DNA of 64,000 bases from an uncultured Methanomicrobiaceae archaeon (GCA_963826525.1 CAWGXH010000004.1:1344001-1408000), one strand, 5' to 3'; positions 36,081 to 42,849 are shown, counted from the stretch's first letter. Notes: generated from the sequence alone by a model not told the origin. Made by a program: numbers and translations.

Positions 36081-37061
36081 TCAAACAGAGTGACGTCTTA
36101 AAGGAACTTTGATCGACGCACCCTGCCGGACTGCCAGCATTCGCTCGATCGCTGTCCGCGCCCGGGCGGCGACGTCTTCCGGGACTGTCACCCGAGGTTC
36201 AAGCCGTTCAAGGGCAGCAAGCACCTCTGCAAGCCCGGTCTTCTTCATGTTGGCGCAGACCGCCCGGCTTGAGAGGGGGAAGAAGATCTTCTCCGGGCAC
36301 TGCTTTTCGAGCTGGTGCAGGAGCCCGACCTCGGTGCCGATGACGAACTCCCGGGCGGTGCTCGTGCAGGCGTGCCGGACCATCCCCGACGTCGAGAAGA
36401 CGTAGTCGGCGAGATCGATCACCTCGGGCCGGCACTCGGGGTGGACGAGCACCTCGGCATCCGGGTGGGAATGGCGGGCGGCCGTCACCTCATCGGCCGT
36501 CATCCGCTCGTGGACGATGCAGTAGCCCTCCCAGGGGAGGATCTCCTTTTTGGTGAACCGGGCGACGTAGCGGGCGAGGTTTCTGTCGGGGAGGAATATC
36601 ACCTGCTCCGCGGCGAGGGACTCGACGACCGCGACGGCGTTTGCGGAGGTGCAGCAGATGTCGCTCTCCGCCTTGACCTCCGCGGAGGTGTTGACGTAGG
36701 CGACGACGGCGGCGGCGGGGAACCGCTCGCACAGCACCCGCACCTCTCCGGCGGTGACCATCGCGGCCATGGGGCAGCAGGCATCCGCGGCGGGCAGGAT
36801 GACCGTCTTCTCCGGCGAGAGGATCGCCGCCGTCTCGGCCATAAAGTCGACGCCGCAGAAGACGATGACGCCGCTATCGAGGGTTGCGGCCGCCCGTGCG
36901 AGTTCGAGCGAGTCCCCGACGAGATCGGCGATATCCTGCACCTCGGGAGCCTGGTAGTTATGCGCGAGAATTGTCGCATCACGCTCGGCCTTGAGCGTGG
37001 CGATCCGCCGGGATATGGATGCCGTGTCTTTGGTTTTGTCCGGAATGGGGATGATAATCAC
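36081..37061 (-). CDS. nadA: Quinolinate synthase
   Basis: ILAHNYQ, GDSLEL, FCGVDFMAE, CPMA, YVNTSA, CIVH, HPEC, CANMK. Confidence 0.95.
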   Translation of the reverse strand: MIIIPIPDKTKDTASISRRIATLKAERDATILAHNYQAPEVQDIADLVGDSLELARAAATLDSGVIVFCGVDFMAETAAILSPEKTVILPAADACCPMAAMVTAGEVRVLCERFPAAAVVAYVNTSAEVKAESDICCTSANAVAVVESLAAEQVIFLPDRNLARYVARFTKKEILPWEGYCIVHERMTADEVTAARHSHPDAEVLVHPECRPEVIDLADYVFSTSGMVRHACTSTAREFVIGTEVGLLHQLEKQCPEKIFFPLSSRAVCANMKKTGLAEVLAALERLEPRVTVPEDVAARARTAIERMLAVRQGASIKVPLRRHSV

Positions 37062-37096
37062 AACCTATTTGCGCAGGTAATTGGTACTATTGGGCG

Positions 37097-37112
37097 AATC
37101 ACAATTGTGAAT
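37097..37112. promoter_or_regulatory. Palindromic operator candidate, sulfur/Fe-S cluster
   Basis: AATCACAATTGTGAAT, a 15/16 match to 40422-40437, between divergent nadA and 37158. Confidence 0.7.
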
Positions 37113-37157
37113 GTTTCGGCCTGCCTCCCGCCGGCGGTGCCGACCGAAGTGATCCGA

Positions 37158-37535
37158 ATGCCACGAATTCTGAATGCATTGGATCTCGCGATCCTGAAAA
37201 AAGTTGCCCCCGAATCGTCGGGGACGATCTGCACTGGTTCCGGGAGTCCCTACCGCTCGATCCTCCCGCCGCTGGCGAACCGCCACGCGACGGATGCTGG
37301 GGACTTTCTCGAGCGGATGGAGCGGCTCGACGACTCCGATCTCCGCTATCTTGCCGGGCTGATGTGCGACGGGAGCGAGAGCCTCGGGTGTGTCCCGGTT
37401 GAGTATATCGAACTCTTTCTGGCTTTCGTAGCAGATCGGCTCGGGCGGGATACCGCTCTTTCGCTCCTACAGCACCTTGAGGGTGAGGGTGGCTGCATAC
37501 GCTGTTCGTCCCGTCTGCCGTATCGTACGTCCTAG
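37158..37535 (+). CDS. Hypothetical protein with Cys motifs (125 aa)
   Basis: MPRILNALDLAILKKVAPE...ICTGSG..YRSILPPLANRH...DGSESLGC...CIRC; plausible start downstream of the palindrome. Confidence 0.7.
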   Translation: MPRILNALDLAILKKVAPESSGTICTGSGSPYRSILPPLANRHATDAGDFLERMERLDDSDLRYLAGLMCDGSESLGCVPVEYIELFLAFVADRLGRDTALSLLQHLEGEGGCIRCSSRLPYRTS

Positions 37536-37675
37536 AAAACGGTGAGAATGCATCCATTGCAGGGGAGGCAGTTCGTCCTTGCCCGTCGTCGGGAGGAGAT
37601 TTGCACCGATCCGATATCGATGAGGTATGCATGCTCTCGTCTCTCTCCGCGGTTCAATATGGTACACGACTGTCG

Positions 37676-37691
37676 TTTCGCAATTGTGGAT
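37676..37691. promoter_or_regulatory. Degenerate copy of the sulfur/Fe-S palindrome
   Basis: TTTCGCAATTGTGGAT (13/16 match) upstream of the thiS-ttuA genes. Confidence 0.5.
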
Positions 37692-37829
37692 TGATCTGCA
37701 GCGATCATCGACGATCCATGCGTGGCTTCCCATTGCAGGTGTATCTGTCGCATCGGGTGGCTTTGCCTGCACTCCGGCTGCTCCTGCAGGAGGTTTATGG
37801 GGTGGTGGGATCAACCCTCTGATACATCC

Positions 37830-38024
37830 ATGCAGATCATCCTCCCGGATAAAAGCGTGCGGACGGTTCCCGCCACCTCCGCTCCGATAGAAGCGATCCT
37901 CCTTGAGCTCGGGATCAACCCGACAACCGTGATCGTCGTGAAGAACGGCAAAGTCGTCCCTGAGGATGTGACGGCGGACGACAGCGACGAGATCCGGATC
38001 CTCCGGGTCTCGCACGGCGGGTGA
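37830..38024 (+). CDS. ThiS/MoaD-family ubiquitin-like sulfur carrier (TtuB/SAMP-like)
   Basis: 64 aa: MQIILPDK...LLELGINP..VIVVKNG...RVSHGG, with C-terminal GG. Confidence 0.88.
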   Translation: MQIILPDKSVRTVPATSAPIEAILLELGINPTTVIVVKNGKVVPEDVTADDSDEIRILRVSHGG

Positions 38025-38028
38025 GCGT

Positions 38029-38946
38029 ATGTCCACTGGAGAGAACCGGTGCTCCCGCTGCCGCGAATCTGCGGTCATCCGTCTCACCGGCCCGGAGCGG
38101 CGGTTGTGCGTCGGCCACTTCATCGAGGACGTCGAGGCGCGTGTTCTCGCCACCCTCGAACGTGACCGTATGGTTTCGCCGGCCGACCGGATCGCCGTCG
38201 GCCTGAGTGGGGGAAAAGACAGCACCGCCCTGCTCCTGCTGCTCCACCGCCTCCTCCCAACGCCGGAAGCGAGCCTCGTCGCGGTCACCGTCGACGAAGG
38301 CATCGCGGGCTACCGCGAGGAGACGGTCGCGGCCGCGGAAGACCTGACGAACGAGCTCGGCGTCGAGCACCGGATCGTCACGTTCGCCGATCTCTTCGGG
38401 GACGATCTCGACAGGATACTTGCCGGGAGAGAGGCGCAGGCCTGCACCGTCTGCGGCGTGCTGCGCAGGCGGGCGCTCGTCGAGGCGGCGAAGCGGATCG
38501 GTGCGACGAAACTTGCCACCGGCCATAACCTCGACGACGAGGCGCAGTCGGTCCTTATGAACGTGCTCCGCGGGGACCTCCCTCACCTCCTCCACGATAC
38601 CTCGTCCGGGCAACCCGGGCACTTCGTTCCGCGGATAAAACCGCTCAGTGCACTCTCCGAGAAGGAGATCACGACGTACCTGCTCCTCCGGGAGTACTAT
38701 CGCGACCTGCCTGAGTGCCCGTACGCCGGCACCGCGCTTCGATCGGAGGTGCGCTCGATGCTCGCCGCGATGGAGCATCGCCATCCGGGCACGATGGGCC
38801 GCCTCATGCAGTTCCGCGACGAGGTCAGGCGCTCGGCCGGTTCTGCCGACCGGAAAGGGCTGCTTCGCACCTGCCGTATCTGCGGCGAACTTGCGAGCGG
38901 CGAGATCTGCCAGGTCTGCAGGCTGCTCGGACGGGAAGAGCGGTAG
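38029..38946 (+). CDS. ttuA: TtuA/Ncs6-family tRNA 2-thiolation enzyme
   Basis: N-terminal CxxC..CxxH, PP-loop SGGKDS, CTVCGVLRR, TGHNLDD, RIKPL, CPY, C-terminal CxxC..CxxC. Confidence 0.88.
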   Translation: MSTGENRCSRCRESAVIRLTGPERRLCVGHFIEDVEARVLATLERDRMVSPADRIAVGLSGGKDSTALLLLLHRLLPTPEASLVAVTVDEGIAGYREETVAAAEDLTNELGVEHRIVTFADLFGDDLDRILAGREAQACTVCGVLRRRALVEAAKRIGATKLATGHNLDDEAQSVLMNVLRGDLPHLLHDTSSGQPGHFVPRIKPLSALSEKEITTYLLLREYYRDLPECPYAGTALRSEVRSMLAAMEHRHPGTMGRLMQFRDEVRRSAGSADRKGLLRTCRICGELASGEICQVCRLLGREER

Positions 38947-39025
38947 AGCCTGCACGCCCGGATCACGAGGCATATCTGCCTGCAGAAAAAGAGGTATAAA
39001 GAGCATTCTTCGAGGGAGATACGTC

Positions 39026-39886
39026 ATGGCACCGGATACGGACGAGCATATCATCGAAGCGATAGGAAAGACCAGGGTCGTCGTCAGGAACGGAAAGGTC
39101 GTGGAGGTCGGCGAGGCAATCATCACCGACTGCCCGCTCGCAAAAAGGTTCGCATGCCCGGTTCGCGAGATCTCGGCAGAAGCGGTCAGGGAGAATATCG
39201 AGCACCGGATTCTGGCGTTCGGGATGTGCACGCCCGACCGGGAGGTCTACGACACCCGGGAGTTCGTCGGTTTCGGGGCGTCCGAGCTGCTCAGTTTCGG
39301 CATGAAGGCCGGTATGTTCGACGCCGCGGTTCTCGCCTGCGACGGCGCCGGCACGGTCGTCGTGACCGACCCTGCTATGTTGCAGGGCATCGGCGGCAGG
39401 ATGTCGGGACTTGTCCGGACGACGCCGTACCCGTCGGTCATGGACCGGATCGAAGAGGGTGGCGGCACCGTCCTCGACCGCGAGAGTGCGGCGATCGACC
39501 AGGTGGCAGGCGTCGCGCTCGCGAAGGCCGAAGGCTACCACAGCGTCGCTGTCACGGTCGCCCTACCTGTTGATGTGGCGGAGATTCGCCGGGTGCACCC
39601 CGATGCCTTTATCGTCGCGGTGCATGTCACCGGCCTTACGCAGGATGAGGCGGCGGTTATCGCCGCGGCCGCCGATCTCGTGACGGCCTGTGCATCGGGG
39701 ACAGTCAGGGAGGTGGCCGGCTCACGGGCGCTCGTCCAAGCCGGAGTCTCGGTGCCGGTCTACGCGATGACCGAACGGGGCAAAGACCTCATCATCGAGA
39801 AGATATGCCGGTCGGACGAGCCGGTGCTGATCAAACCTACTCGTCTCCCGGTCGCCGGAGACCGGCAGCCCGATCCCCTGGTGTGA
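39026..39886 (+). CDS. Methanogenesis marker protein 8 (DUF2099)
   Basis: DEHIIEAIGKTRVVV.NGKVVEVGE, CPL, FGMCT, FGASE, ACDGAGTV, QGIGGRMSGL, TACAS. Confidence 0.85.
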   Translation: MAPDTDEHIIEAIGKTRVVVRNGKVVEVGEAIITDCPLAKRFACPVREISAEAVRENIEHRILAFGMCTPDREVYDTREFVGFGASELLSFGMKAGMFDAAVLACDGAGTVVVTDPAMLQGIGGRMSGLVRTTPYPSVMDRIEEGGGTVLDRESAAIDQVAGVALAKAEGYHSVAVTVALPVDVAEIRRVHPDAFIVAVHVTGLTQDEAAVIAAAADLVTACASGTVREVAGSRALVQAGVSVPVYAMTERGKDLIIEKICRSDEPVLIKPTRLPVAGDRQPDPLV

Positions 39887-40022
39887 AAGTCACTTCGGAC
39901 ATGCCCTGACGCGGAGGCCGTAGCACAGCCCTTTGAGTGTGTGGCGCATATACTCGGTGCACTGCACCCGCTCCGCTCCAGGCGTCTCGACGGCTAGGAG
40001 CGACTCTCTCGCCGCGAGCACG

Positions 40023-40376
40023 TCAGTCAGGCGTCCCCGGGCTTGTACCGGTCTTCCCCTCCTCGTTACACCTGCCGAACCCAGGGTCTTCTTCCCGGAG
40101 CTGTACGCAGATGGCGCAGATCCGTGCGGCGAGGTCGTCCACCCTCCCTTCGCGGAGGTCCCGGGCGAGTCCTGCGATTGATGCCTTCACGTCGTTCTCA
40201 AAGACGATTCGATAGCCTCGCTTTCCGGAGAGGTACTGCGAGATCGCCGACGGCGCCATCCCGAGGAGCCGTGCGGCCTCCTGCTGGGAGACATCGCACC
40301 GGATCAGTTCTTCGGCGATAGCCGCCCGGATTGCGGGCAGCACGTCCCAGACAATAGCCTGACAGGGCAACTTCAT
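40023..40376 (-). CDS. XRE/HTH transcriptional regulator with Cys motifs (COG2522-like)
   Basis: MKLPCQ.IVWDVLPAIRAAIAEEL...SQQEAARLLGMAPSAISQYLSGKRG...ICAIC. Confidence 0.85.
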   Translation of the reverse strand: MKLPCQAIVWDVLPAIRAAIAEELIRCDVSQQEAARLLGMAPSAISQYLSGKRGYRIVFENDVKASIAGLARDLREGRVDDLAARICAICVQLREEDPGFGRCNEEGKTGTSPGTPD

Positions 40377-40421
40377 GATATCACAACGCTTAAAGGATTG
40401 TGAATAGCACATTTAATGGAA

Positions 40422-40437
40422 ATTCACAATTGTGAAT
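40422..40437. promoter_or_regulatory. Perfect 16-bp palindrome, operator candidate
   Basis: ATTCACAATTGTGAAT between the divergent HTH gene and iscS; extra half-sites ATCACAA (40380-40386) and ATTGTGAAT (40397-40405). Confidence 0.75.
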
Positions 40438-40496
40438 GGGCAGGAACTCACAAATATCTTTCCCCGTCACCCTGCCCACACCGGAAGTGGACGTTC

Positions 40497-41678
40497 ATGG
40501 CTATGAAACAGGTGTATATGGATCACGCGGCGACCACGCCGACCCACCCGGAGGTCGTCACGGCAATGCTCCCGTACTTCTCGGAGCGGTTCGGGAATCC
40601 CTCCTCGCTCTACAGCAGGGCGCGGGAGGCGCGGAAAGCCGTGGAAGAAGCCCGCGTGAAGGTAGCGACTGTGCTCGGGGCTACCCCCGAGGAGATCTTC
40701 TTCACTTCCGGCGGGACGGAGTCGGACAACTGGGCGATAAAGGGAACTGCCGTCGCCCATCGGAAGAAGGGAAACCATATCATCACCTCGTCGATCGAGC
40801 ACCATGCGGTCATCCATCCCTGCGAATACCTCGAGAAGCAGGGTTTTTCGGTGACCTACCTCCCCGTCGACGAGTACGGCAGGGTCGACCCTGCGGCGGT
40901 CGAGGCCGCCATCACTCCCGGGACGATCCTCATCTCGGTGATGACCGCGAACAACGAGATCGGCACCATCCAGCCGGTCGCCGAGATCGGGAATATCGCC
41001 CGCGAGCATGGCGTCCTCTTCCACACCGATGCCGTGCAGGCGATCGGTGCGATACCTATCGACGTAAATGCACTGAACGTCGATCTCCTCTCGCTCTCCG
41101 CTCACAAGTTCTACGGCCCAAAAGGGATCGGGGCGCTCTACATCAGAAAGGGCACCAGGGCAGAGACGCTCATCCACGGCGGCGGCCAGGAGCGGCGGCG
41201 ACGGGCGGGCACCGAGAATGTTCCCGGGATCGTGGGGCTCGGGAAAGCGATCGAGCGTGCCGCCACCGATCTCGAGGGGCGCACCCGGCGTATCGCCGCG
41301 ATGCGCGACCGCCTGATCGCGGGCATCTTCGATACGATACCGGATACCCGGTTGAACGGCCATCCGACACTGCGGCTGGCGAACAACGTCAACATCGCGT
41401 TCCGCTATGTGGAGGGCGAGTCGATCCTGCTGATGCTCGACCACTTCGGCATCGCCGCCTCGACGGGGAGCGCCTGCACCTCGGCGACCCTCGACCCCTC
41501 GCACGTCCTCCTCGCCTGCGGCCTCCCACCTGAACACGCCCATGGCTCGCTCCGGCTCACCCTCGGGGAGGAGAACTCCGACGAGGATCTCGACTACGTC
41601 CTCGAGGTGCTCCCCGGCGTCATCGAACGGCTCCGGAGCATGTCGCCGCTGACGCCGCCGGCAGAGGGAGGAAGATGA
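40497..41678 (+). CDS. iscS: Cysteine desulfurase
   Basis: [50 protein letters not shown]. Confidence 0.95.
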
Positions 41679-42106
41679 TGACAGAATACAGCGATACCGT
41701 CATGGACCATTTCATGAACCCCCGGAATATGGGGGAGATCGTGGATGCGGACGGCGTTGGCGAGGTCGGGAACCCGGCCTGCGGCGATATCATGAAGATC
41801 TCCATCCGGGTCGCCGACGACCGGATCATGGACGCGAAGTTCAAGACCTTCGGGTGCGGGGCGGCGATCGCCTCGAGTTCCATGGCTACGGAGATGATCG
41901 TCGGAAAGACGCTTAAAGAGGCCTGGGAGATCACGAACCGGGCGGTCACCGAGGCGCTCGAAGGTCTCCCGCCGCAGAAACTGCACTGCTCGGTGCTTGC
42001 GGAGGAGGGCATCCATGCAGCGATTAACGACTACCGCGTGCGTAGCGGCCTCGCTCTGTGGGAGGAGCGCCCTTCCCGCGCCCACCATTCGGGGGAACCG
42101 GAGTGA
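41675..42106 (+). CDS. iscU: Fe-S cluster scaffold protein
   Basis: [37 protein letters not shown]. Confidence 0.95.
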
Positions 42107-42849
42107 CCGGCATTCTTGACGAGCGCGAGTTCTCGCGGTACGGCAGGCAGATCCTCCTCTTCGGCGAGGAGGGGCAGGAACGGCTGAAGGCAGCGAAAGT
42201 CTTCATAGCCGGTGCCGGCGGGCTTGGCTGCCCGGCCGCCCTCTACCTTGCCGCGGCGGGGATCGGTGAGATCCTGCTTGCGGACTGCGATGTCGTCGAC
42301 CGCACCAACTTAAACCGGCAGGTTCTCCACTGGGAGCGGGACGTCGGCCGCAGGAAGACCGACTCCGCTACGGAAAAACTCCGTGCACTGAATCCGGATA
42401 TCAGGGTGACGGATCTTCCGGTCACCATCGACGAGGCGAATGCGGCGGCGCTCGTCGGCGATGCCGACCTGATCGTCGACGCCATGGACAACTTCGAGAC
42501 CCGCTACCTCTTAAACCGGGTCGCCCTCCGGAAGGACATCCCATTCATCCACGGCGCCATTCGGGGGTTCGATGGTCAGGCGACAACCATTATCCCGGGA
42601 AAGACCGCGTGCCTCCGGTGCATCTTCCCGAGAGCCCCTCCGGCAGAGGTCTTCCCGGTCGTCGGCGTCACGGCCGGGATCATCGGGATGATCCAGGCGA
42701 ACGAGGCGATCAAGTTCCTCCTCGGGATGGACGGCCTGCTCGCCGGCAGGCTCCTCATCTGGAGCGGGGTTACAACAGAGACGGAAACTCTGCAGGTGGA
42801 GCGGCACCCGGGCTGCGAGGATTGCGGCGAGGGATGCATGATCGCGTAA
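42103..42849 (+). CDS. moeB: MoeB/ThiF/UbaA-family E1-like adenylyltransferase
   Basis: RYGRQI, GAGGLG, DVVDRTNLNRQ, DAMDNF.TR, CLRC and CEDC. Confidence 0.88.
   Translation: MTGILDEREFSRYGRQILLFGEEGQERLKAAKVFIAGAGGLGCPAALYLAAAGIGEILLADCDVVDRTNLNRQVLHWERDVGRRKTDSATEKLRALNPDIRVTDLPVTIDEANAAALVGDADLIVDAMDNFETRYLLNRVALRKDIPFIHGAIRGFDGQATTIIPGKTACLRCIFPRAPPAEVFPVVGVTAGIIGMIQANEAIKFLLGMDGLLAGRLLIWSGVTTETETLQVERHPGCEDCGEGCMIA

Follow-up and report, generated by a model that had tools for sequence, protein, structure and literature searches.

What switches the genes whose products assemble iron-sulfur (Fe-S) clusters in a methanogen? Methanogens are among the most Fe-S-rich organisms, and we know of no account of how they control Fe-S assembly and sulfur trafficking. 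The question is raised in concrete form by a 64,000-nt stretch of DNA from an uncultured Methanomicrobiaceae archaeon (GCA_963826525.1, CAWGXH010000004.1:1344001-1408000), termed the window here, in which copies of a 16-bp palindrome lie in the gaps next to iscS and a nadA gene. A reading made from the sequence alone (the sequence-only reading) had linked this palindrome to nadA, a hypothetical gene, thiS-ttuA and iscSU, and had proposed it as the operator of a cysteine-containing helix-turn-helix (HTH) protein encoded beside iscS, which is called the regulator below. The palindrome is very probably the docking site of this protein, through which the regulator would switch its own gene together with neighbouring sulfur and Fe-S genes. 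Three lines of evidence uphold its assignment as a conserved operator of the HTH gene, namely its position, its co-occurrence with the gene and its covariation with the protein.

The palindrome accompanies the regulator gene

Conservation of the palindrome was examined across 41 genomes from the order to which this archaeon belongs, its own among them. A close homolog of the regulator (E <= 4e-20) was present in 22 of them, and the other 19 encoded distant HTH_3 relatives (E >= 2.7e-10) or none. The close homologs gave 23 loci, 21 from relatives and two from this genome, and at all 23 the palindrome xTTmACAATTGTkAAx, differing from the 16-mer by 0-4 mismatches, preceded the start codon by 35-61 nt. 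No palindrome was found upstream at the seven distant-homolog loci (L025-L031). The distance between the palindrome and the HTH gene was constant whichever gene lay on the other side, be it iscS, moaD, thiF, a thi4-like gene or fdhD.

A wider sample was taken from a public collection holding one genome per species, where 462 stretches encoded relatives of the regulator. The best 80 of the 462 were analysed, and these came from Methanomicrobiales (Methanoculleus, Methanoregula, Methanofollis, Methanocalculus and Methanolinea) and Methanosarcinales (Methanolobus and Methanomethylovorans). A 14-bp core of the palindrome, with up to 2 mismatches, was present within 100 nt upstream of the gene at 70 of these 80 loci, mostly starting at -59 to -65, and in 11 of 1600 random 100-nt control windows from the same loci. 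A scan of the genome and of orthologous promoters had been named as a check by the sequence-only reading, and the motif proved conserved in both samples. The operator precedes the gene of its own regulator at 23/23 and 70/80 loci. Autoregulation, as had been suggested, is the natural reading.

The presence of the motif anywhere in a genome followed the same distribution. Of the 22 genomes that encode a close homolog, 20 contained the exact pattern TTMACAATTGTKAA, versus one of the 19 that do not, and both regulator genomes that miss the exact pattern have near-matches. A reversed control pattern was found in none of the 41 genomes. Within a single genus represented by 18 genomes, the pattern was present in all seven that encode the regulator and in none of the 11 that do not. 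The one genome with the motif and no regulator, G027, was considered as a counter-example and rejected, because all 11 of its copies lie inside copies of one transposase open reading frame (ORF) and therefore amount to a single chance occurrence that has been multiplied. The eleven elements (L132-L142) are near-identical copies of an insertion sequence whose transposase ORF carries TTAACAATTGTTAA by chance.

The operator covaries with the recognition helix

The relationship between the protein and the palindrome was further studied in 76 distinct locus types. Where the recognition helix starts with Thr-Pro, TTAACAA was present in both half-sites at 18 of 18 distinct loci. Where it starts with Ala-Pro, this was the case at 0 of 58, the C variant (TTCACAA) being found in both half-sites at 51 and a mixture at seven. 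The alanine in question is Ala41 in the regulator of the window. The Thr-Pro state is found in at least two lineages, the Methanoculleus-type proteins and a divergent paralog group (~ 40% identity), and one genome encodes two paralogs, each behind its own type of operator. The kinship of the genomes notwithstanding, such covariation would be hard to explain unless the regulator protein reads the palindrome, and a regulator dimer most likely binds the 16-bp site.

It could be that another factor binds the palindrome, or that the palindrome is a non-regulatory repeat travelling with the gene cluster. The operator assignment is drawn from sequence, and in several relatives the sites cluster in one genomic island, so that linkage could account for some of the co-occurrence. 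We give this idea almost no credence, given the fixed distance to the HTH gene whatever its neighbour, the recognition-helix residue that covaries with an operator base, the absence of the site from genomes lacking the regulator gene and the decay of sites once the downstream gene has been lost (see below).

Copies of the palindrome in the window and in the genome

The three copies reported in the window, one perfect, one matching at 15 of 16 positions and one at 13 of 16, were recovered at the positions originally given for them (Table 1). The core of the palindrome is CACAATTGTG. They were exactly the three matches found in the window at up to 3 mismatches; dinucleotide-preserving shuffles (n = 100) gave a mean of 0.06 matches, and three matches were reached in 0 of the 100. 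The whole assembly (3.06 Mb in 16 contigs, 60% G+C, 87.6% complete) contained six matches at the same threshold, compared with ~ 2.9 expected from base composition, and three of the six lie in one 3.3-kb stretch. The fourth match in the genome, GTTCGCAATTGTGAAC at C4:1074360, is situated 61 nt 5′ of the gene for a regulator paralog. The two remaining matches, of which one falls within a coding frame and the other in a gap rich in AT, look like chance occurrences.

The paralog gene (G000:C4:1074421-1074744, locus L002, outside the window) encodes a protein with 69% identity to the regulator and stands in divergent orientation to moaD (ThiS family), moaE and ycaO. The palindrome variant in front of it, GTTCGCAATTGTGAAC, recurs in a genome of the same genus (L016).

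A position weight matrix (PWM) built solely from the sites of other genomes was used to rank the sites in this one. The iscS/regulator site came first with a score of 31.3, followed by the nadA2/hypothetical-gene site (24.9), the moaD/paralog site (17.9) and a match on the side of a superoxide dismutase gene (17.3), and all others scored below 15. The superoxide dismutase-side match, CATTTCACAAATGTTAAGTA at C4:1509251 and outside the window, lies ~ 250 nt from the start of the Fe/Mn superoxide dismutase gene, and is at most a candidate site.

The half-sites that had been described also exist, namely AATCACAA at 37056-37063 and, in front of the regulator gene, ATCACAA and TTGTGAAT (Table 1). 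The 7-mer half-site, counted in either orientation, has 10 copies in the window, seven of them within the two intergenic gaps. The half-site at 37056 overlaps the nadA start codon. TTGTGAAT may be the remnant of a second operator, and complete second operators are found 20-32 nt from the first in relatives. ATCACAA is conserved as TTGTGATAyC-ATG and doubles as a Shine-Dalgarno-like GTGAT; the 3′ end of the 16S rRNA reads GGATCACCTCCT, and one relative has GGAGGTGGTATA at this position. Because it matches the anti-Shine-Dalgarno sequence, ATCACAA may be no operator half-site. The anti-Shine-Dalgarno sequence was taken from the 3′ end of the 16S rRNA gene, which lies in the window at ~ 57634 on the minus strand (G000:C4:1401634).

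Promoter geometry and mode of control

In archaeal promoters the B recognition element (BRE) lies upstream of the TATA box, which is centred ~ 26 nt before the transcription start. A logo of 67 distinct loci revealed a conserved box, 'cgaAAg.ttTTTTt', at -34 to -22 from the palindrome centre. The purine-rich part of this box faces away from the HTH gene, and the box is therefore oriented towards that gene. With the box ~ 26 nt upstream of the palindrome centre, the regulator mRNA would be predicted to start at the middle of the palindrome, and the site would thus occupy a repressor position. The regulator promoter in the window consists of the 8-mer AGATATTT (minus strand, 40459-40452), 14 nt, the palindrome, and 53.5 nt from its centre to the ATG. 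The promoter of the hypothetical gene has the same geometry, with AGGTAATT (37075-37082) followed by 14 nt, the palindrome, and again 53.5 nt from centre to ATG. An example of a local BRE/TATA is the box AAAGAGGTATAAAG of the methanogenesis marker 8 gene, which ends ~ 22 nt before the ATG. It is proposed that the bound regulator would cover the transcription start and so repress its own gene, and that the hypothetical gene, with its identical geometry, would be repressed likewise. Autorepression is the likely mode of control, both the transcription start and the sign of regulation being predicted from promoter layout.

The placement of sites at other genes was also informative. Among the site-bearing loci, all 12 distinct tRNA genes were tRNA-Cys genes, and for 10 of them the palindrome centre preceded the mature 5′ end by 14-20 nt; these loci were fetched because they bear sites, so the counts describe the neighbours of sites and not the share of all tRNA-Cys genes. 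In the 50 tRNA promoters of this genome, the TATA box is found ~ 35-45 nt before the mature end, and transcription would start near -15. In several tRNA-Cys promoters TATAAATA is immediately followed by a second operator, at a distance of 28 nt from the first one. In G035, where iscS has no divergent regulator gene, the order upstream of iscS is TATA box, 19 nt and then the palindrome. Protein bound at these tRNA-Cys and iscS sites would block the polymerase.

One alternative is that the protein is an activator or dual regulator that binds just upstream of BRE/TATA and recruits TFB/TBP to iscS, to nadA2 and perhaps to its own promoter. A AAATATCTTT box indeed follows the palindrome at 14 nt and precedes the iscS ATG by 35 nt, and if this box serves iscS, the site would be upstream of the BRE, as in archaeal activators. 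In many loci the palindrome is also closely followed by a second AT-rich element. Were this the actual TATA box of the HTH gene, the site would overlap the BRE and activation would be possible. Activation is nonetheless distinctly unlikely in our judgement. The conserved AAAG flank, rich in purines, is at the far end of the box and orients it to the HTH gene, the tRNA-Cys sites fall between TATA box and start or on the start itself, and the G035 palindrome is downstream of the TATA box, all of these sites being in repressor positions. At iscS and nadA2 in the window the site would lie beside or upstream of the likely TATA boxes, an arrangement that makes the sign of regulation less plain there; co-repression of both genes is considered likely. 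The divergent iscSU operon shares its 120-bp control region with the regulator gene and would probably be co-regulated.

The predicted regulon

Operators were found before genes of Fe-S assembly and sulfur transfer, both next to the regulator gene and away from it. Profile searches in Pfam and NCBIfam agreed with the gene identities assigned by the sequence-only reading (NadA, ThiS-like, TtuA-family, HTH, IscS and IscU). A divergent partner of the regulator gene was found at 22 of the 24 close-homolog loci searched, with iscS in nine cases, a moaD-like gene in five, thiF and fdhD in two each and a thi4-like gene in one. Elsewhere in relatives, sites precede nadA2, the hypothetical gene, a 330-aa radical S-adenosylmethionine (SAM) gene and SAMP2-ncsA. 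They also precede tRNA-Cys genes followed by SepCysS (644 bits), cysK (457 bits) or thiF; genes for a SufS-like desulfurase, thiI, pdxS and thiN; a sufB/smsB-like gene; and a small winged-helix gene. Relatives thus carry sites at thiF genes, the family of the gene downstream of iscSU in the window, and in some genomes a LarE gene follows the regulator. The same site across Methanomicrobiales and some Methanosarcinales would then mark a variable regulon for sulfur mobilisation and Fe-S assembly, with iscSU, nadA2, moaD/E, thiF, SAMP2-ncsA, tRNA-Cys with SepCysS, cysK, the sufS-like gene, thiI, pdxS and the sufB-like gene as predicted members. The earlier claim of a sulfur and Fe-S regulon holds to the extent that such genes bear sites here and in relatives; in this genome the regulon is narrower than had been claimed.

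A second nadA and the hypothetical gene

Two types of nadA were distinguished. The housekeeping type is present in every genome (45-52% identity), that of this genome being on contig C3 (G000:C3:63203-64093). The gene in the window belongs to a paralog group, nadA2 (65-100% identity), which is present in 14 of the 41 genomes. The palindrome was found upstream of 10 of 14 nadA2-type loci versus 0 of 16 housekeeping-type loci, leaving four nadA2 loci without a site.

The same intergenic gap contains the start of the hypothetical gene, whose orthologs in three genomes (g6) keep the site 50-54 nt before the ATG. In the nearest relative, G001 (L144, G001:C1 2440-2640), a deletion extending into the SAMP2 upstream region truncates the hypothetical gene after ~ 20 codons. 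Here the nadA-side operator has lost a central base and the TATA-like box is gone, with nadA2 intact. Since the operator decayed along with the hypothetical gene and nadA2 stays, the site would mainly serve the hypothetical gene. Operators seem to decay with the gene ~ 53 nt downstream, and the hypothetical gene is likely the direct target of the second operator. A search of the ESM Atlas gave no usable match for its protein. The link between palindrome and nadA proposed at the outset can be kept in that the site does lie upstream of this nadA paralog, with the amendments that the gene is a second nadA and that the site appears to belong mainly to its neighbour.

The degenerate copy and SAMP2-ncsA

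The 13/16 copy lies at the relic of the radical-SAM gene. When the relic was compared with the intact ortholog of G010 using BLASTP, two segments were matched (E = 5e-08 and 0.005). Relatives have a strong site between the 330-aa radical-SAM gene and SAMP2-ncsA, and by this comparison the 13/16 copy is interpreted as the decayed operator of the deleted radical-SAM gene. A distance of 146 nt separates the degenerate site from the start of SAMP2, which has a TATA-like GGTTTATGG of its own ~ 35 nt before the ATG. Control of SAMP2-ncsA by the palindrome is doubtful in this genome, and the earlier link to thiS-ttuA was not borne out, the copy scoring 11.2 with the PWM compared with 31.3 for the main operator.

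The regulator protein and its cysteines

The regulator passes the gathering score of HTH_3 (PF01381) over residues 21-53 (27.1 bits versus 23). Its predicted cysteine motifs are present as described, with Cys5 in LPC and Cys87 and Cys90 in CAIC, together with Cys27 and Cys103. All 22 close homologs retain Cys5 (in PCQ or PCE), Cys87 and Cys90, and each has a fourth cysteine 10-13 residues beyond Cys90. A profile search of 1.84 billion representatives returned 762 clusters at E <= 1e-10. The best 150 clusters contained 123 members of full-length size, of which 110 have Cys5, 96 the CxxC motif and 70 all four cysteines.

Pfam gave only HTH_3-clan and other generic HTH profiles for the regulator, without a match to an ArsR/TrmB-type winged-helix domain, and PF02082 (Rrf2) was not among its matches at E <= 0.01. 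The bacterial regulator IscR had been reported as absent, and a search of this assembly (87.6% complete) gave no Rrf2 protein of the IscR type; the sole Rrf2-like match is to another ORF (31.4 bits), covers the winged-helix part alone and has a single cysteine. Structure and sequence searches placed the protein no more precisely. The AlphaFold2 (AF2) model has five helices, including those at residues 31-38 and 42-50, with a predicted local distance difference test score (pLDDT) of 75.6. Foldseek returned no match in the PDB at E <= 0.001, HigA and C.Esp1396I appearing only at E >= 0.77, and the best hit of a VIA-align structure search (Z 5.9) was confined to the HTH, with the C-terminal half matched by nothing. 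Weak structural matches of the C-terminal helical hairpin to CstR, CsoR and FrmR (Z 5.0-5.4) reflect a common helical arrangement only and are no evidence of a relationship. A sequence search of the PDB found generic XRE/HigA proteins only (a lambda-repressor-like protein at E = 5.9e-4 and HigA at E = 0.05), the ESM Atlas placed the regulator only in generic HTH clusters, and the database names were generic for every named match among the 120 matches listed for the family.

A distant subfamily of ~ 105-aa HTH_3 proteins, with MTEPPSCDIMRCD ... ICDVC and four cysteines, is encoded in most of the 41 genomes (L026-L031, e.g. L026 1471-1788). Its genes follow a short ORF, and no palindrome of the regulator type lies upstream of them.

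The most plausible role of the four cysteines is as ligands of an Fe-S cluster, or of some other centre that responds to sulfur or redox state, and in the proposed mechanism this would couple DNA binding to the supply of sulfur or Fe-S clusters. Taken together, we think it fairly probable that the palindrome serves as operator for a hitherto uncharacterised family of small archaeal HTH proteins of the XRE type with four conserved cysteines, which autoregulate, govern a sulfur and Fe-S regulon and sense through their cysteines.

Several observations weigh against this interpretation, in addition to the four nadA2 loci without a site, the decayed nadA-side operator of G001 and the second AT-rich element described above. 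Related genomes are not independent samples, and the counts given here overstate their statistical weight. The regulon is small in this genome, comprising three strong sites plus the unexplained superoxide dismutase-side match; no site was found at its SepCysS gene, both tRNA-Cys genes, pdxS, the sufB-like gene, thiI or fdhD. Orthologs of iscS are present in 37 of the 41 genomes, many of which have no regulator, and so the regulator is not needed for isc expression in general and would be an accessory layer of control. Finally, pLDDT falls below 50 at residues 1-3, 5-7 and 99-117 of the AF2 model, which does not resolve whether the four cysteines meet, and the cysteines could hold structural zinc.

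If they do hold zinc, the operator and regulator would be as described, and the protein would be a plain autoregulator or would answer to an unrelated signal such as a small-molecule ligand or a partner protein. Four-cysteine sites in small DNA-binding proteins often bind zinc. The fourth cysteine shifts between two alignment columns and completes the set in only 70 of the 123 diverse relatives, and the AF2 model gives no confident geometry for a cysteine site. Even so, zinc seems to us a somewhat unlikely answer. The regulon is focused on genes for cysteine, persulfides, Fe-S clusters and thiolation, which fits a sulfur-linked signal; Cys5 and the CxxC motif are kept in very distant relatives; and the arrangement of an N-terminal cysteine, a CxxC motif and a tail cysteine differs from the usual pair of CxxC knuckles.

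Another possibility is a metal-free thiol signal, in which the CxxC motif would form a disulfide, persulfide or polysulfide bridge under reactive sulfur or oxidant and thereby alter DNA binding. Thiol switches have precedents in SurR of the Thermococcales and in CstR/SqrR of bacteria. The invariance of the CxxC motif in close homologs would suit such a switch, as would the regulon members that make or carry persulfides (IscS, the SufS-like protein, ThiI, MoaD/SAMP and the E1 enzymes). The invariant Cys5 and the recurrent fourth cysteine would, however, be superfluous in a simple CxxC switch, and disulfide switches are less obvious in the sulfide-rich, strongly reduced habitats of methanogens. 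We hold this to be unlikely, and prefer the reading in which the four cysteines hold a cluster or other sulfur-sensitive centre.

Relation to known regulators

IscR is a bacterial Rrf2-family protein with a [2Fe-2S] cluster, held by three cysteines plus one histidine or another fourth ligand. Like the predicted system, it is autoregulated, is encoded beside iscSU, controls Fe-S assembly and some Fe-S enzyme genes and has a cysteine-ligated sensing site. Its fold is a winged-helix Rrf2 domain, whereas the regulator here has an XRE-type HTH_3 domain with the pattern Cys5 ... CxxC ... C. Moreover, iscR is the first cistron of isc, and the gene here is divergent from iscS, with a regulon that reaches tRNA-Cys/SepCysS, molybdopterin and tRNA thiolation genes in relatives.

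SufR of cyanobacteria and actinobacteria carries a [4Fe-4S] cluster and four cysteines. It is likewise a four-cysteine autorepressor, and its palindromic sites also serve to repress the Fe-S assembly operon that lies divergently beside it. It belongs, however, to an unrelated bacterial family, and a cluster in the regulator described here is a prediction. On the interpretation favoured here, the regulator is one that works like IscR or SufR and stands outside both families.

SurR is archaeal, regulates sulfur genes and has a functional CxxC motif that serves as a redox switch. It is larger, has winged-helix domains and responds to elemental sulfur in heterotrophs, whereas no such domains were matched by Pfam in the regulator and its predicted targets belong to biosynthetic sulfur transfer. 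XRE/Cro-type autoregulators, such as restriction-modification controllers and HigA, share the HTH_3 fold class and act as dimers on short palindromes before their own genes. They lack the N-terminal cysteine and the C-terminal CxxC-C extension, however, and control toxin or restriction genes and not metabolism.

No description of the regulator or of the motif was found in the literature, the coverage of which did not extend to subscription journals or supplementary files. The iscS2U2 genes of Methanosarcina acetivorans are described as clustering, in many Methanomicrobia, with genes for the biosynthesis of methionine and NAD (PMC7585200). No regulator of these genes is named in the portions available of this study of the M. 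acetivorans ISC system, of a 2021 survey of iron and sulfur pathways in methanogens (PMC8351635) or of a 2026 review of Fe-S biogenesis (PMC13066941). For M. maripaludis, NcsA is reported to require a [4Fe-4S] cluster (PMC10067955).

What is provided here is a candidate protein, together with its exact operator, a predicted set of target genes and a residue that would determine specificity. With the site as a marker, annotators could flag genes as sulfur-related, examples being the hypothetical gene at 37158 and the second nadA. A more far-reaching proposal, which we put forward tentatively, is that these proteins are new archaeal master regulators sensing Fe-S clusters or sulfide, in which an XRE fold with four cysteines replaces IscR, SufR and CymR in methanogens, and which in many relatives repress tRNA-Cys and SepCysS from operators on transcription starts. 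If this were true, the supply of Cys-tRNA itself would be tied to the sulfur or Fe-S status of the cell.

Features of the locus

The features discussed are collected in Table 1. A gene outside the window should be mentioned beside the iscS gene listed there. This third iscS-like gene (G000:C4:312080-313238) appears split into two overlapping frames covering residues 3-205 and 205-388, the second with one TGA, and may be a frameshifted pseudogene or an assembly error.

Table 1. Genes and sequence elements around the palindrome copies, in window coordinates.
Feature	Position	Strand	Remarks
nadA2, quinolinate synthase paralog	36081-37061	-	NadA profile, 416 bits
Second operator AATCACAATTGTGAAT, 15/16	37097-37112	no strand	nadA2/hypothetical gene gap; PWM 24.9
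Hypothetical 125-aa Cys-containing gene	37158-37535	+	no Pfam or NCBIfam family
73-codon relic of 330-aa radical-SAM gene	37532-37753	-	internal deletion joins residues ~ 8-20 to ~ 310-327
Degenerate copy TTTCGCAATTGTGGAT, 13/16	37676-37691	no strand	PWM 11.2
SAMP2/ThiS-like carrier	37830-38024	+	profile match
NcsA/TtuA-family PP-loop protein (tRNA thiolase)	38029-38946	+	below both NCBIfam cut-offs
Methanogenesis marker 8 (DUF2099)	39026-39886	+	in cluster, without site
Regulator gene, 117-aa XRE-type HTH protein	40023-40376	-	Pfam HTH_3, 27.1 bits versus cut-off 23
ATCACAA	40380-40386	no strand	just 5′ of regulator start codon
Extra half-site TTGTGAAT	40398-40405	no strand	32 nt from main operator centre
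Main operator ATTCACAATTGTGAAT, perfect 16-bp palindrome	40422-40437	no strand	regulator gene/iscS gap; top PWM score of the genome, 31.3
BRE/TATA-like box AAAGATATTT	40452-40461	-	14 nt before palindrome; from sequence
iscS/nifS-type cysteine desulfurase	40497-41678	+	divergent from regulator gene; profile match
iscU/nifU scaffold	41675-42106	+	downstream of iscS; profile match
ThiF/MoeB/UbaA-like E1 enzyme	42058-42849	+	downstream of iscSU; profile match

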